Shown here: positions 7,722 to 56,312 of the stretch, one piece after another
Position numbering within the stretch: the stretch's first letter is position 1
How the letters are laid out: each line of letters begins with the position of its first letter
Source of the DNA: Sphingobacteriaceae bacterium
GTDB taxonomy: Bacteria > Bacteroidota > Bacteroidia > UBA7662
Direction: 5' to 3'
NCBI GenBank assembly: GCA_013824115.1
Contig: PNNG01000030.1
Coordinates: forward strand, 18,144-82,143
Length of the DNA stretch: 64,000 nt
Made by a program: the position numbers and the translations under genes
The notes under the pieces: generated by a model
What the model was told of the DNA's origin: nothing
Databases searched by the model: none
What the model saw: the letters and a program-made list of their open reading frames with translations, nothing else

Positions 7722-9317
7722 TTAAAACCCGGGGAGTTGCCACAATACAGGAGGCAGTAACAACAACGCACCAGTGACCAAGAGCAGCAGTTGCAGCGGC
7801 AACATGAATTTGAACCACTGCGCATACTCAATGCGTGCCATGCCCAACACCCCAATGAGCACCCCCGAAGTGGGTGTAATGAGGTTCGTGAAGCCATCGC
7901 CAAATTGAAAGGCGAGTACGGCTGTCTGTCGCGAAATGCCTAATAAATCGGCAAGCGGTGCCATAACGGGCATGGTAAGCGCAGCTTGTCCCGAGCCCGA
8001 AGGCACCAAAATATTGATGCCCGTTTGCACCGCAAACATTACTTCTGCCGCCCAGGCTTTGGGCAGGTCTTTGAACAAATTGGCGGTATGGTACAGTATG
8101 GCATCTATGATGAGGCCTTGTTCTAAAATCACCAAAATGCCTGCGGCCAAGCCCACTACCAGGGCCGCTGAGGCCATATCGCGGGCTCCGGCCAAAAACT
8201 CATGTACAAAATTATCGGCACTTTGCTGCATCACCCCAGCGTTTGCCACCGCCATGGCCAGAAATACAGCTGCAATTTCTTCCATATACCAGCCATGGGC
8301 CATTACGCCCACCACAATGCCGCCAATGGCCAAGCTGAGATGAAATAGCAGCAGGTAGTAAACCGATTGTCGGAGTAACCAAAGTCCACCCACGGCATAC
8401 AGCATAACCAAAAAGGGAATAGTAGGCACTTGCCACTGCTTTCCACCGGCCTCGAAAGTGCTGAGTGGATAAAACCAGGCAAAGCAAAGCATGCTCACTA
8501 ACAGCAAAAACCAACTTACATAAGCCGAAGTGCTTCCCTTGCGGTGTGCCGGCAATTCGGTATTACTGGCCGCTTGTTCGTTCCACCAGGCATTGGCCGA
8601 GGCACAAAAGCTCCGGTCGGCAAACTTACCCCAGCGATGCGCATACCACAAAACATAACCGATGCCTACGGTAGTAATAATGACAAAACAAAAAAGCCGA
8701 TATTCCAGTCCGCTAAACGGCTGCACCCCGGCAATGCCCTGGGCCACGCCAATGGTAAACGGATTGAGCAAGGCACCTGCAAAGCCCAGCGCAGCGCCTA
8801 CAAAACACATGGATACGCCTACAATGGCATCATAACCAAGTGAGCGCGACAGAGGCACGAAAAGCAGCACGAAGGGAATGGTTTCTTCGCTCATGCCAAA
8901 AACAGCCCCAAAAACAGCAAAAAGCAACATGCAAAGCGCAATCACCAGGTTCCCACCACCCAAACGCGCTGCCCAGGGGGCTTTTTCTAACTGTTGAATG
9001 CGCTTTACGAGCGATAAAATCCCCAAATCGAGTGCTCTGCTGTTTTGTAATTGAAAGAATACCCCACCCACTATAAATATGAAGACGATAATACCCGCCT
9101 GGCGCTCAAAACCCTTGAAAAAGGCCGTGAATATTTGCCAGCTCTGGGGTTGAGCATCTACCGATTGAAACGAACCTGCTACAATAAGCTGCCTCATGCT
9201 TCCATTCACCTCGGTGGCTGCCCGCTCAAATTGTCCACCCGGTAGCAGCCAAGTAGACAGAGCCGCTAAACAGATGACAGCAAAAAGGAGGACGTAGGTA
9301 TGGGGGATTTTGCGCAT
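7722..9317 (-). CDS. YfcC family transporter (putative basic amino acid or C4-dicarboxylate-type carrier)
   Basis: 531 aa polytopic membrane protein. The N-terminus MRKIPHTYVLLFAVICLAALSTWLLPGGQFER and the overall pattern are typical of the YfcC/DcuC-like family. Confidence 0.7.
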   Translation of the reverse strand: MRKIPHTYVLLFAVICLAALSTWLLPGGQFERAATEVNGSMRQLIVAGSFQSVDAQPQSWQIFTAFFKGFERQAGIIVFIFIVGGVFFQLQNSRALDLGILSLVKRIQQLEKAPWAARLGGGNLVIALCMLLFAVFGAVFGMSEETIPFVLLFVPLSRSLGYDAIVGVSMCFVGAALGFAGALLNPFTIGVAQGIAGVQPFSGLEYRLFCFVIITTVGIGYVLWYAHRWGKFADRSFCASANAWWNEQAASNTELPAHRKGSTSAYVSWFLLLVSMLCFAWFYPLSTFEAGGKQWQVPTIPFLVMLYAVGGLWLLRQSVYYLLLFHLSLAIGGIVVGVMAHGWYMEEIAAVFLAMAVANAGVMQQSADNFVHEFLAGARDMASAALVVGLAAGILVILEQGLIIDAILYHTANLFKDLPKAWAAEVMFAVQTGINILVPSGSGQAALTMPVMAPLADLLGISRQTAVLAFQFGDGFTNLITPTSGVLIGVLGMARIEYAQWFKFMLPLQLLLLVTGALLLLPPVLWQLPGF

Positions 9318-38071: not shown

Positions 38072-38563
38072 ATGCTACGTAGTATTTCTTTCCTCGCTGT
38101 CTTAGGATTGTTGGTATTTGCTTCGTGTGAAAAAGAGCAAAGCCCCATTCTATACCCCGAAAACGGTTAGTCGGGCCCCAATATCCTGGCAGCCGACCGA
38201 ATGAACTACCCGAGAGAGGTAAGCTTAGAGGCCGATTTGGGTGAAGCGAATCAGTTGCGGGTAGTTATTAAAGGCATCACCTCTTACACCCGCAGAGACA
38301 CCTTAGGGCCATTGTCTAACGGAGCTTTTGATATACGCACGGTGTATCGTGGCATGTGGTGGTGGCAAATGGGCAAGCAACACAATGCGTTTGTCGACAA
38401 AATGGATTATGAAGATCCTTTTTCACAGCAAATGCAGAGCGTAGATGCCCGCGGAAAAGTGACCGCGAAATTGTCGTTTGACAGGGGTTTTTCCTACATC
38501 GTGGAGATTAACGAAAACAACGCTACACAACCTACCCGGGTAAAGCAGATTCAAGTGGAATAA
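38072..38563 (+). pseudogene. Lipoprotein gene interrupted by an in-frame TAG (codon 33)
   Basis: The ATG at 38072 gives MLRSISFLAVLGLLVFASCEKEQSPILYPENG, then TAG at 38168-38170. The same frame continues as SGPNILAADRMNYPREV... to the stop at 38563. The track ORF 38201..38563 is the downstream part. Confidence 0.6.
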
Positions 38564-38627
38564 CATCTCTTACTGGCACGATAAACAGCACGCAGATACA
38601 GCCCATTGGGGAATTTCCCCATGGCAA

Positions 38628-38659
38628 AAGCCCGACTGACATTCGGGCTTTTTGTTTTT
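38628..38659 (+). terminator. Rho-independent terminator
   Basis: Hairpin aagcccga..tcgggctt followed by tttgttttt. Confidence 0.7.
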
Positions 38660-38960
38660 GAGCAACCATCGCCAGGCAAATGCTTTCTGTGTAGCTGACT
38701 ATGGCTGAGGTGGTTTACCAGTACGAACGGGTCGTGTTAAAAAGCAGGCATCGCGCATTTTCATCCATCCATAAAATGAACATGTTGCTTGCACATGAAT
38801 GTACTTGACACTTGCCTTTGATATGGTTTTTCAGGCGATTTTTTTTGTGTTTAAAGCATAATTCTTCCTTCGCTTGGAAGCAGTTTTTTTGCTTTCTATT
38901 TTCGTTAAGCCCCATGTGAAGAAACAAAATCAAAGGGCTAACTAATTTGAATTCAACTAA

Positions 38961-39503
38961 ATGCCCATGCAGATGGAAGATCAGAAACTGCAAGTTCCTA
39001 TAGGGACAATCATAGCACGTATTTACGAGGTGCGAGGAAAAAAGGTGATGCTCGACAAAGATTTGGCTGCCTTGTATGAGGTTACCACAGGTAACTTAAA
39101 CAAGGCTGTTTTGAGAAACATGCAGCGTTTCCCCGAGGATTTCATGTTTGAGCTTACCGAAGAGGAGTGGGAATGGCTAAAGCCCGAAGTAGAGCAATCG
39201 GGTTGGGGCGGTACCAGGCGCCTACCACGGGTATTCACCGAGCAAGGGGTTGCCATGCTTTCTGGTGTTCTCAATAGCGAGCGGGCCATCAAGGTAAACA
39301 TCCAAATCATGCGGGCTTACAGCAAGGTGCGGGAGATGTTGCTCACACATCGCGATATACTGTTAAAAATGGAGGATATAGAGCGACGAATGAATCAACA
39401 AGATGCCCAAGTAGGACAAGTATTCGAATACCTTCGCCGGTTTGTGGAAGATAATAACCGTCCTCGTCCACGAATTGGTTTCCGTTCAGATGACCTCTCT
39501 TGA
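38961..39503 (+). CDS. ORF6N domain (KilA-N-like) DNA-binding protein
   Basis: IYEVRGKKVMLDKDLAALYEVTTGNLNKAVLRNMQRFPEDFMFELTEEE is the canonical ORF6N signature, followed by a coiled-coil-like tail. Confidence 0.8.
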   Translation: MPMQMEDQKLQVPIGTIIARIYEVRGKKVMLDKDLAALYEVTTGNLNKAVLRNMQRFPEDFMFELTEEEWEWLKPEVEQSGWGGTRRLPRVFTEQGVAMLSGVLNSERAIKVNIQIMRAYSKVREMLLTHRDILLKMEDIERRMNQQDAQVGQVFEYLRRFVEDNNRPRPRIGFRSDDLS

Positions 39504-40127
39504 TATTCCAATCTGGAATATCAAGAGAGTGGCTTGTTTAACTTGACCTTCCAAATTGGAATAGCAAGAGCGTGGTTTGCAGAACTTGACCTTCCAGATT
39601 GGAATATCAAGAGGGTGGTTTGCTTAACTTGACCTTCCAAATTGAAATATCAAGAGGGTGTTCGTTGAACTTGACCTTCCAAATTGGAATAGCAAGAGGA
39701 TGGTTTACCGAACTTGACCTTCCAGATTGGAATATCAATAGGGTGGTTTGCACAACTTGACCTTCCAAATTGGAATATCAAGAGGGTGTTCGTTGAACTT
39801 GACCTTCCAAATTGGAATAGCAAGAAGATGGTTTACCGAACTTGACCTTCCAAATTGGAATATCAAGAGGGTGTTCGTTGAACTTGACCTTCCAAATTGG
39901 AATAGCAAGAGGGAATTCGTTGAACTTGACCTTCCAAATTGGAATAGCAAGAGGGTGGTTTGCCCAACTTGACCTTCCAGATTGGAATATCAAGAGGGTG
40001 GTTTACCGAACTTGACCTTCCAGATTGGAATATCAAGAGGGTGGTTTACCGAACTTGACCTTCCAGATTGGAATATCAAGAGGGTGGTTTGCCCAACTTG
40101 ACCTTCCAAATTGGAAGGTCAAGTTGG
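39495..40127. repeat. Tandem array of 13 full 42/43-bp units capped by two perfect 35-bp palindromes
   Basis: AACTTGACC unit starts read at 39540, 39583, 39626, 39668, 39711, 39754, 39796, 39839, 39881, 39923, 39966, 40009, 40052 and 40095 (the last is terminal and partial). The 5' cap at 39495-39529 is a 16-3-16 palindrome and the 3' cap at 40093-40127 is a 17-1-17 palindrome. Confidence 0.95.
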
Positions 40128-40143
40128 ATTCAAGCACTATTGC

Positions 40144-40875
40144 CTAAAACAACCCTTCCAACCAATTGCCCACTGCATAGCTTACCATGGCCGCCGCAGC
40201 ACCCAAAGCCAAGGTTTCGAGCATGCCTTTCCATTTCGAAGTTTGGGTAACGTAGGTCTTCATCCAGCCGATGAATAAAAAGGCCACGCCGGTCATCACC
40301 GAGGAAATAGCGAAGAGGTTGAATCCGGTGGGATTACAATAGTCGTATAAATAAACCAGCAAAGGAATGAGGCCCACCACCACAAAGCTGCCAAAAGTAA
40401 CCGCGCCCATGGCCAAAGGTGAACGGCTTTCTTCCATCATTTCGAGCTCTTCTTTCATCATCACATCTACCCAGCGGTCTTTGTCGGCCGTGATTACTTC
40501 AACTACCTGCTCCAACAGTGCGCCATCAAAGCCTTTGGCGCGGTAGATTTCGCGGATTTCTTCTTTTTCCTTTTCGGGAAGGTGCTCTACCTCCCAATAT
40601 TCTACTTTTTTGTGCTTGTCGTAATTGTCCTGCTCACTCTGCTTGCTCAAGTACGAGCCCACGCTCATGGCAAAACCGTCGGCCAGCAAATTGGCAAAAC
40701 CCAGGATGATTACCACCTGCGCTGAAAGTCCGGCCCCTGCAGCCCCCGCCACCACCGCAAAAGTGGTCACACTGCCATCGATGCCGCCATACACAAATTC
40801 ACCTAGGTAATCGCTGAATTTGGTCATGAAGCCTTTGTCTTGCTGGTGTAATTTGCGTTCGTGCGTATTGCCCAT
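40144..40875 (-). CDS. VIT1/CCC1 family iron/manganese transporter
   Basis: [24 protein letters not shown], an [11 protein letters not shown] central helix region, and C-terminal TMs. The MGNTHERK start (40875) is preferred because a TAnnTTTG box lies at 40891-40898. Confidence 0.8.
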
Positions 40876-56103: not shown

Positions 56104-56124
56104 GGCACGAAGATAAGAAAGTTC

Positions 56125-56312
56125 GAGGTTCAAAGTTCAAAGTTCAAAGTGGAGCGCAGCGACATCCCGAGAGCCAAGGGCGATTCGGGATTCAAGAGGG
56201 GTTTCGCTGCGCTCAACCGGGCAATTCAAAATTCAAGATTCAAGATTCAAAAGGGGTTTCGCTGCGCTCAACCGGGCAATTCAAGATTCAAGAGGGGTTT
56301 CGCTGCGCTCAT
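56125..56312. repeat. Composite intergenic repeat: heptamer runs plus three copies of GGGGTTTCGCTGCGCTCA and one inverted copy
   Basis: GTTCAAA x3 at 56125-56145, the inverted core GAGCGCAGCGA at 56152-56162, and direct copies starting at 56198, 56253 and 56294, separated by ATTCAAG heptamer runs (spacing 55 and 41 bp). Confidence 0.85.

Follow-up and report, generated by a model that had tools for sequence, protein, structure and literature searches.

A 15-site palindromic array behind an ORF6N gene as a probable amplification of the cognate site of its protein

What might recognise a tandem array of palindromes that begins on the stop codon of a protein gene and runs up to a convergent neighbour? 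The array lies at 39495-40127 of the window, by which we mean the whole 64,000-nucleotide stretch of Sphingobacteriaceae DNA analysed here, and consists of 15 co-oriented palindromic sites with a spacing of 42/43 bp. From centre to centre, the spacings are 43, 43, 43, 42, 43, 43, 42, 43, 42, 42, 43, 43, 43 and 43 bp. Tandem Repeats Finder reported a single array at 39499-40123, with a period of 43, 14.6 copies, 86% matches and a score of 858, together with a super-period of 128 bp (43+43+42) that scored 945. A preliminary description had presented the same DNA as 13 units between two perfect caps. Every one of its 13 unit starts was right, as was the complementarity of the unit arms at 10 of 14 positions, and the two caps are perfect palindromes as described, of the form 16-3-16 at 39495-39529 and 17-1-17 at 40093-40127. 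The array is nevertheless better described as 15 sites, the caps being simply the first and the last of them. The earlier judgement that it does not code was upheld, in that the longest open reading frame crossing the array has at most 74 aa and the 128-bp super-period is not divisible by 3.

Site 1 (39495-39529, no strand assigned) is a canonical perfect site of the TTCCA type, and the TGA stop codon of the ORF6N gene falls within it. Its 25-bp core recurs unchanged in the site preceding the ATG in the related loci L231-233, and with 1 nt changed in that of L023. The 13 internal units (39540-40094, plus strand) are composed of a left arm TTGACC-TTCCA, a right arm TGGAA-TA-TCAA and a tail of 11 or 12 nt. 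The tails fall into a few recurring types, and each holds a short T-run, GGTTTG. The arms mismatch at CC/TA, positions 7-8 from the centre, and five internal units deviate at position 9 as well. The core TTCCAA-A-TTGGAA, said earlier to be perfect in most units, is so in 7 of the 13 internal units, while five carry CCAGATTGG and one carries TTGAAA. Site 15 (40093-40127, no strand assigned) is a perfect palindrome built on the left arm together with the final CC of the tail before it. With a mean spacing of 42.7 bp, the sites recur every ~4.07 turns at 10.5 bp per turn. By this arithmetic they drift by ~24 degrees per unit, or about one full rotation over the array, so the expectation that all dyads would lie on one face of the helix holds locally and fails across the array.

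The gene upstream (38961-39503, plus strand) encodes an ORF6N-domain protein of 180 aa from the first ATG; its orthologues begin at MEDQ, which corresponds to 38973. The protein matched PF10543 above cut-off (E 2.5e-31), the PDC-S05 models of PADLOC (E 8.9e-55) and an anti-repressor family of PHROG. It is 90% identical to P0001/L002, and no exact match is on record. The segment at 38835-38960 (plus strand) holds the promoter and 5' region that travel with the gene and marks the left boundary of the conserved module. Its homology with the region upstream of the ORF6N genes in L016 and L002 starts at TTTTTTTTGTGTTT and is absent further left, and no palindromic site was found in it at up to 3 mismatches. 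A sigma-70 promoter scan returned nothing, the model being of limited value for an organism that appears to belong to the Bacteroidota; a tRNA scan was likewise empty. On the right, outside the module, is the convergent gene of a VIT1/CCC1 iron transporter (40144-40875, minus strand; PF01988, E 1e-65), whose orthologues have 243 aa. Other neighbours are methylmalonyl-CoA mutase, a 120-aa ORF with no family match, ribBA and ATP synthase genes. The plasmid collection yielded similarity to VIT1 alone, and the only matches among cultured and deposited phage genomes were five unannotated metagenomic records. A sequence search of the PDB found no relative of the window protein, and Foldseek against the PDB gave weak winged-helix-like matches only. 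More than 7,900 relatives were retrieved at E <= 1e-10 in one search. The annotation of ORF6N proteins goes no further than "anti-repressor" or phage-defence candidate PDC-S05, the family being otherwise uncharacterised; no title or abstract among the papers listed on ORF6N deals with how the domain works.

In a sample of ORF6N (PF10543) genes picked regardless of palindromes, the genes carry a palindrome of 25-29 bp at one fixed position of the coding sequence. The best palindrome with 12-bp arms had on average 10.75 of 12 positions paired, compared with 7.78 when the same proteins were resampled with synonymous codons, and pairing reached 87% at the palindrome but 20-38% in slid controls. 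Changes on both sides were seen at 11 of the 13 palindrome pairs and in 39 cells, where shuffles gave 12.9 +/- 2.4 (0/500). A one-sided change leaving a wobble occurred in only 1 of 247 cells. The ORF6N palindrome is constrained at the nucleic-acid level. Intramolecular template switching, which could help to keep palindromes perfect in the absence of selection, leaves the correlation with helix residues described below unexplained. When metagenomes were scanned for nothing but the relaxed palindrome, 120 loci came up. Of the matches, 96 fell within ORF6N genes at the one fixed position, and 12 more lay upstream or downstream of an ORF6N gene, nine of them within 300 bp. What is unusual here is that the gene of a presumed DNA-binding protein would preserve a putative operator within its reading frame through compensatory changes that also alter the protein sequence.

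The array units share the anatomy of the family palindrome. Across the family, positions 2-6 and 9-13 from the centre are paired and positions 7-8 are free; the CC/TA mismatch of the units, the only systematic one in all 13 internal units, sits exactly at these unconstrained positions. At the constrained positions, nine of the 15 sites show full symmetry and the remaining six have a deviation, which suggests that part of the array may be decaying. In the window gene itself, the segment that usually bears the internal palindrome (39174-39203, plus strand) has diverged to LKPEVEQSGW and the palindrome is lost: its best internal palindrome pairs at 7 of 12 positions, against 10-12 of 12 in most family members.

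Which protein features go with the site? The AlphaFold2 model of the window protein, of moderate quality (pLDDT 75; top fold match weak, to a Ski/Dachshund domain at E 0.09), places a helix at residues 32-39, a turn, and a second helix at residues 43-52. The latter (TGNLNKAVLR, codons 39087-39116, plus strand) is the predicted recognition helix. Over the family, the core type of the palindrome tracks three residues of this predicted helix (i, i+1 and i+4), which share one helix face. The mutual information with the core type was 1.34 and 1.32 bits at two helix columns and 0.85 bits at the third, and at most 0.67 bits elsewhere. Lysine goes with TTCCA in 46 of 49 genes, glutamine with TCACA in 33 of 34, glutamate with TCGCA in 6 of 6, and arginine with TGC in 6 of 6. 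Altogether the rule holds in 94 of 103 genes; the two clear exceptions, L052 and L090, combine an E-type helix with a TTCCA palindrome only. Proteins with different core types are up to 88% identical elsewhere. The window protein has G44, N45 and K48 at the three columns, which places it in the TTCCA class, and the TTCCA/TGGAA core of the array is the one that this class predicts. The array has thereby led to a testable proposal of what ORF6N proteins bind, and to a rule linking three residues to a core triplet. Judged from these sequence patterns, the adjacent ORF6N protein, named earlier as a candidate binder, is the right candidate, and the array, as had also been suggested, is predicted to be a row of phased dyad sites for a dimeric DNA-binding protein.

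The number of copies varies among relatives. Downstream of the gene there are 0, 2 (L126), about 12 (L002) or at least 10 (L055) units, compared with 15 sites in the window. The arrays of L002 (12 sites) and L126 (2 sites) follow the orthologous ORF6N gene; L055 has a further array (at least 10 units) next to murA, and L224/L225 one next to VIT1. Gene and array were found in two different chromosomal contexts, the right neighbour in L002, L055 and L126 being murA and not VIT1. Sister lineages retain the ORF6N gene with no array at all, so multiplicity is not essential to ORF6N. Relatives with no array carry one site before the ATG, and in four lineages of K-type genes that have no internal palindrome (L017, L023, L230 and L231) a single TTCCA site lies just upstream of the ATG. 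The cap-array-cap architecture of the preliminary description is not a conserved design, because the nearest relative, L224/L225, which shares the VIT1/ribBA synteny, ends in an ordinary hybrid unit with no 3' cap. Two other species, represented by L002 and L055, end in a different hairpin followed by T5-T8 on the plus strand.

We hold with moderate confidence that the array arose when the palindromic target of the ORF6N protein, whose gene lies immediately upstream, was amplified in tandem, and that the protein would dock to it. The predicted helix-turn-helix is followed by long C-terminal helices that probably form a coiled-coil dimer, and such a protein would read a two-fold symmetric site. 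Each gene of the family would keep one cognate site in cis, usually in the variable-loop codons of its own coding sequence. Otherwise the site lies ~50 bp before the ATG, where an operator would be placed, and autoregulation is implied. A point against this reading is that a site at the 3' end cannot be a classical operator. The window lineage may have lost the internal copy and carried a canonical site on the stop codon instead. Unequal recombination or slippage would then have multiplied a 43-bp segment (right half-site, tail and left half-site) into 15 sites. The 5' cap would be the ancestral perfect site, and the 3' cap a recent hairpin-templated conversion. Derivation from two ancestral perfect palindromes, a-a' and b-b', was considered and rejected: with b-b' absent from L224/L225, a secondary conversion accounts better for the 3' cap. 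The caps would be by-products of repeat growth. Once formed, the array, placed between convergent genes, could tether many ORF6N dimers at the 3' end of the gene that encodes them. We infer binding, dimerisation and any physiological effect; the most likely effects would be local buffering or sequestration of ORF6N, and a protein roadblock or insulator against convergent transcription. The idea that gene conversion of the ORF6N loop draws on the units as silent cassettes was discarded on finding no flanking homology with the window gene.

How much of this could have arisen with no selection on the array? It is possible, if rather unlikely, that the array is a neutral minisatellite, its units stemming from the ORF6N site or a terminator hairpin, multiplied by slippage or unequal crossing-over between neighbouring palindromes and tolerated between convergent genes with no selected function. 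The variable copy number among close relatives, the six deviating sites and the unconserved 3' cap are all consistent with neutrality, as is the in-frame TAA in the ORF6N gene of L126, which has two units only. The repeats have a higher order of 128 bp and some neighbouring units are identical, both signs of recent unequal exchange. However, over three species the site cores are conserved and the period of 42-44 bp is kept while the tails have diverged, and at least three assemblies, with two chromosomal contexts between them, retain arrays of at least 10 units that moved with the gene. Both observations count against neutrality. An action of the array as RNA, with hairpins in the ORF6N 3' UTR serving as terminators, 3'-end stabilisers or protein-binding RNA, we regard as improbable. 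In its favour, all palindrome copies, internal or external, are in sense orientation within or adjoining the ORF6N transcription unit. Site 1 was flagged as terminator-like in the scan with the tail TGGCTTGTTT, and the T-runs of the tails and those after the last unit in L002 and L055 point the same way, but the window's own 3' cap has no T-run on either strand. Moreover, the covariation in the family runs nearly entirely from one Watson-Crick pair to another, with its single wobble, and complementarity often reaches within one base of the centre (78% at position 1), which could not pair in a hairpin. That core identity tracks helix-turn-helix residues argues for a reading of duplex DNA. Rfam 15 gave no match at the gathering score, and at relaxed thresholds the window had eukaryotic matches at chance level only, while 18 related loci had none. 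Folding of the whole array on both strands was uninformative because the units pair with each other and the low energies are unspecific. The asymmetry of G.T versus A.C mismatches likewise does not separate sense RNA from DNA, because Thr/Ile coding confounds positions 7-8 and the counts at constrained positions are few (8 G.T, 13 A.C and 21 other).

The geometry had earlier been taken to suggest that a complex for segregation or replication nucleates here, on a centromere-like partition site or an iteron origin, in an element whose cap-array-cap architecture had no described parallel. An analogue does exist: in sopC of the F plasmid, a 43-bp direct repeat occurs 12 times, and SopB binds a 16-bp inverted repeat present in every unit (PMC3177203). 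Like the array, sopC, part of a type Ia ParABS system, lies directly after the gene of its binding protein, presumed in our case. Yet we consider a centromere or origin very improbable here. The window protein matches PF10543 only and not ParB, no ParA, ParM, TubZ or Rep gene is among the neighbours, the surroundings are chromosomal housekeeping genes, and the sister lineages dispense with the array. In addition, the cumulative GC skew rises steadily through the locus (38-42 kb) with no switch. The array is a chromosomal, partner-less counterpart of sopC-type arrays. We give next to no credence to a dispersed palindrome of a generic kind (REP/BIME or MITE), nor to an array of guide or antitoxin RNAs (CRISPR, TIGR or type III ToxI-like). 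Imperfect palindromes do cluster here in the space between convergent genes, and their even period and short, varying tails give them that general look. Unlike REP/BIME, the array has a strict head-to-tail phase of 42/43 bp with no alternation of orientation, is tied to one protein gene and shows no sign of dispersal within the sequences covered. The 64-kb window contains no further copy of arm, core or unit, bar two isolated 2-mismatch matches to sub-motifs of 13-14 nt, and among 185,579 representative genomes a single contig, from a related MAG, has the unit in array form. Five further matches, each to a lone unit, lie away from ORF6N genes and equal the chance estimate in number. Tails of 11-12 nt in a few recurring types are not spacers, and no cas, tas, RAYT or endoribonuclease genes are nearby, which agrees with the earlier verdict that this is not CRISPR.

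Genes that harbour sites for their own products are known: parS lies inside spo0J in B. subtilis, and the iterons of ori-lambda lie inside the O gene. As in these cases, the presumed binder's dyad site lies in a tolerant segment of its own coding sequence in ORF6N genes, and specificities co-vary. The ORF6N genes differ in having one site each, no replication or partition machinery, and an unrelated protein family. Autoregulated repressor-operator pairs of phages and plasmids, such as the heteroimmune lambdoid repressors, resemble a predicted dimeric helix-turn-helix ORF6N protein with a palindrome near its start codon (the four K-type lineages above), and there too helix residues track bases. 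By contrast, the putative ORF6N operator is mostly intragenic, and that of the window is at the 3' end and 15-fold.

A broader proposal, which we regard as doubtful, is that ORF6N proteins are "self-addressed" regulators. Each gene would carry its own operator in the codons of a tolerant loop, with three helix residues specifying the core triplet, and sites of other classes would link the genes into cross-regulatory networks. The 15-site array might then be a selected decoy or sponge that retains or titrates ORF6N-class proteins and so contributes to the candidate PDC-S05 defence; the proteins could be the host's own or an anti-repressor homologue of that class encoded by a phage. Sites of other specificity classes were found in or beside the ORF6N genes of L031, L143, L088, L061 and L027.

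The sequence of the array at 39495-40127 proved to be exactly as the preliminary description gave it. Tandem Repeats Finder reported a single array (39499-40123, period 43, 14.6 copies, score 858), in which a higher-order period of 128 bp (43+43+42) outscored the 43-bp period. The array is most simply described as a series of 15 palindromic sites, all in one orientation, whose centres lie 42 or 43 bp from each other. The 5' cap (39495-39529) and the 3' cap (40093-40127) have the described sequences but no separate status, being the first and last of these sites, and the CC versus TA imperfection noted in the units falls exactly at positions 7-8 from the centre. The array is indeed not coding: no ORF longer than 74 aa crosses it, and the 128-bp period is not divisible by three. 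It contains no tRNA and no Rfam match, and Rfam has no family for the palindrome. With an average of 42.7 bp between them, successive sites would drift around B-DNA, completing roughly one turn of the helix by the end of the array, and would not all lie on one face as had been proposed. Outside the array, the 64-kb window contains neither the unit nor either of its arms. Other repeats occur at 56118-56293, between two minus-strand ORFs: short tandem AAAGTTC (x4.7) and AATTCAA (x4.3), and a 55-bp unit present twice (92% identity).

Upstream, the array adjoins a plus-strand gene for a 180-aa ORF6N-domain protein (38961-39503; PF10543, E 2.5e-31), whose TGA stop falls within the first site. Downstream lies a convergent VIT1 iron-transporter gene, then ribBA, with methylmalonyl-CoA mutase and the ATP synthase operon farther out. 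The locus is ordinary chromosome. No partition, replication, cas or transposase genes were found in its surroundings and the cumulative GC skew runs smoothly through it, which speaks against the centromere-like or iteron role first suggested. Interpretations of the array as a centromere or origin, a REP/MITE element or a CRISPR-like array each fell short on defining features, the REP/MITE one in that no dispersed copies turned up in the 64-kb window or, beyond a single contig, in the related MAG described below. Outside the ORF6N module, a 120-aa ORF (38201-38563) matched nothing in Pfam, PHROGs, PADLOC or NCBIfam; a clean hairpin resembling a terminator, AAAAGCCCG...CGGGCTTTT with a T-run (38626-38652), comes after it.

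When 185,579 representative genomes were scanned for exact matches, the unit occurred as an array at one place only, a Chitinophaga-labelled MAG (L002). Its ORF6N gene is 90% identical to the window's and is directly followed by 12 sites, the first again at the stop codon; the right-hand neighbour is murA instead of VIT1. The metagenome scan contributed three further cases. In contig L055, which begins inside the array, at least 10 units of strictly 43 bp adjoin murA. L126 has just two sites before murA, and its ORF6N gene (reverse strand) carries an in-frame TAA as the codon after LKP; the gene may be a pseudogene, or the TAA a sequencing error. The third case, contigs L224 and L225, shares the window's synteny (ATP synthase, bactofilin, M23 peptidase and ribBA, with VIT1 at 95% identity); each contig breaks off within an array unit shortly after VIT1. 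Because array relatives lie beside murA as well as beside VIT1, promoter, gene and array form one module in two chromosomal contexts, with homology between the two starting about 125 bp upstream of the ATG. Orthologues with 67-68% identity (L017-L023) lie between ndk and murA without any array, with a single near-perfect copy of the array palindrome placed 30-50 bp ahead of the start codon. Four contigs of relatives, three from Logan assemblies and one from an ENA metagenome assembly, break inside the array (L016 6528-6571, L224 ~8770-8802, L225 ~8140-8170, L055 1-430), so assemblies like these may understate how common such arrays are.

A finding beyond the array coordinates was more surprising: a family-wide putative operator, usually intragenic, that co-varies with the predicted recognition helix. 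A scan with a relaxed palindrome alone, TTGANNTTCCANNNTGGAATANCAA, returned at least 120 metagenome loci. Among the 120 matches listed, 96 fell within an ORF6N gene, always at the same place, and 12 more up- or downstream of one (9 of the 12 within 300 bp). We also selected ORF6N genes solely on the protein anchors RFPxDFMF and FTEQGVA, blind to the palindrome; 27 of 28 distinct genes had a 25-29 bp palindrome at the same position, with differing cores (TTCCA/TGGAA, TCACA/TGTGA, TCGCA/TGCGA, TGCCA/TGGCA, TGCA/TGCA). Observed pairing was 10.75 of 12 positions, compared with 7.8 of 12 after synonymous-codon resampling of the same proteins. In a gap-free alignment of 19 palindrome segments from this sample, 87% of cells were complementary; shuffles reached 71.5% and slid controls 20-38%. 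Both-sided changes occurred at 11 of 13 pairs, and only a single cell showed a one-sided (wobble) change. Pairing was about 100% at positions 2-6 from the centre, 63% and 44% at positions 7-8, 89-100% at positions 9-13, 52% at position 17, and 7-15% at positions 16, 18 and beyond. The intragenic palindrome, seen across viral (L144-L223) and metagenome (L024-L143) contigs, is kept by compensatory changes that alter amino acids (F..G, S..V, S..A, C..G, C..C). The window gene has lost it at the homologous position, 39174-39203. Two tandem palindromes of unlike specificity classes, present as a 9-codon insertion, occur within the coding sequence in L031 and L143, and back-to-back clusters of TTCCA-, TCGCA- and TCACA-type palindromes lie just up- or downstream of ORF6N genes in L088 (~1880-1990), L061 (~1800-1950) and L027. 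Such mixed classes suggest possible cross-regulation between ORF6N paralogues.

In the AlphaFold model of the window protein (pLDDT 75), helices 32-39 and 43-52 are separated by a turn and followed by a small sheet and a pair of long C-terminal helices, likely a helix-turn-helix domain with a coiled-coil dimeriser; its fold matches were weak and winged-helix-like. When core type was compared with each protein column in 96 distinct genes, mutual information peaked sharply at three positions on one helical face, corresponding to G44, N45 and K48; two of these columns gave 1.34 and 1.32 bits and the third 0.85, with at most 0.67 bits at every other column. At position 48, K went with a TTCCA core (46/49), Q with TCACA (33/34), E with TCGCA (6/6) and R with TGC (6/6). 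The rule relating helix residues to core was satisfied by 94 of 103 genes, and three of the nine exceptions were K-type genes without an internal palindrome but with an external TTCCA site. Proteins of unlike site type reach 88% identity outside the helix and the palindrome-encoded loop; therefore the correlation is not simply deep clade structure. Two further K-type genes without an internal palindrome (P0004 and P0076), on which the rule was tested, each had a single TTCCA palindrome some 50 bp ahead of the ATG. The upstream site in L231-L233 has a 25-bp core identical to the window's 5' cap. In two lineages, these contigs (1-1402) and L230 (1-1433), two tandem tyrosine-recombinase genes precede the ORF6N gene and its TTCCA site, suggesting carriage on an integrative element. 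As the window protein has G-N-K beside a TTCCA-type array, we read the units as putative cognate duplex-DNA sites of the adjacent ORF6N protein.

Site placement suggests classical autorepression where the site lies upstream of the ATG, and a roadblock form of it where the site is intragenic. With its 15 sites at the 3' end of the gene, the array cannot repress initiation. It would most economically be read as a high-avidity docking platform that buffers or sequesters ORF6N at the locus encoding it and also blocks transcription between the convergent genes. The array might alternatively be a neutral minisatellite, as sister lineages without an array, wide copy-number variation among relatives and degeneracy of 6 of 15 units at a constrained position would allow. 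We consider this unlikely: site cores are conserved between species while tails diverge, and arrays of at least 10 units persist in several assemblies, both of which point to selection maintaining the sites. A role as RNA hairpin or terminator is quite improbable; the first unit is terminator-like and T-runs follow the last unit in two species (L002, L055), but wobble pairs are nearly absent and core type correlates with helix residues.

For the origin of the array we infer the following. The first site is the canonical perfect palindrome. The repeated 43-bp segment would run from one site's centre to the next, so that each internal site joins a variant left half (TTGACC..) to the canonical right half. 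The 128-bp super-repeats and runs of identical units appear to show continuing unequal exchange. The 3' cap pairs the left arm, extended by the terminal CC of the tail before it, with a reverse-complement copy, and looks like hairpin-templated conversion. It is missing in the nearest relative (L224/L225), and the array ends differently in L002 and L055, so the cap-array-cap architecture is not a design feature. The original interpretation is partly supported: the array is noncoding, not CRISPR and made of phased dyad sites beside ORF6N, but a centromere or origin, a cap design and one-face phasing over the whole array find no support.

The array is, as judged from sequence, a tandem binding-site array beside the gene of its putative binding protein. 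Its nearest known counterpart is F sopC, 12 x 43 bp with an inverted repeat in each unit bound by SopB (PMC3177203); the array would work like such site arrays but is not a member of the sopC family. In titles and abstracts of the literature matching 'ORF6N', no site, operator or palindrome is described for the domain. The window protein matches the PADLOC phage-defence candidate PDC-S05 (E 8.9e-55), one representative of which, described as RhuM-domain, is reported to have given ~1000-fold protection in E. coli (preprint 10.1101/2024.09.26.614923). The window gene sits among housekeeping genes, outside any defence island. Neighbours of 85 ORF6N genes were likewise mostly housekeeping genes, with a recurrent placement between two NADH-dehydrogenase antiporter-like subunit genes; the Proton_antipo_M family accounted for 13 of the 85. 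In L024 (9503-13043) the ORF6N gene is tightly packed between, and co-oriented with, two such genes, and L036, L070, L091, L099, L109, L130 and L139 have a similar placement.
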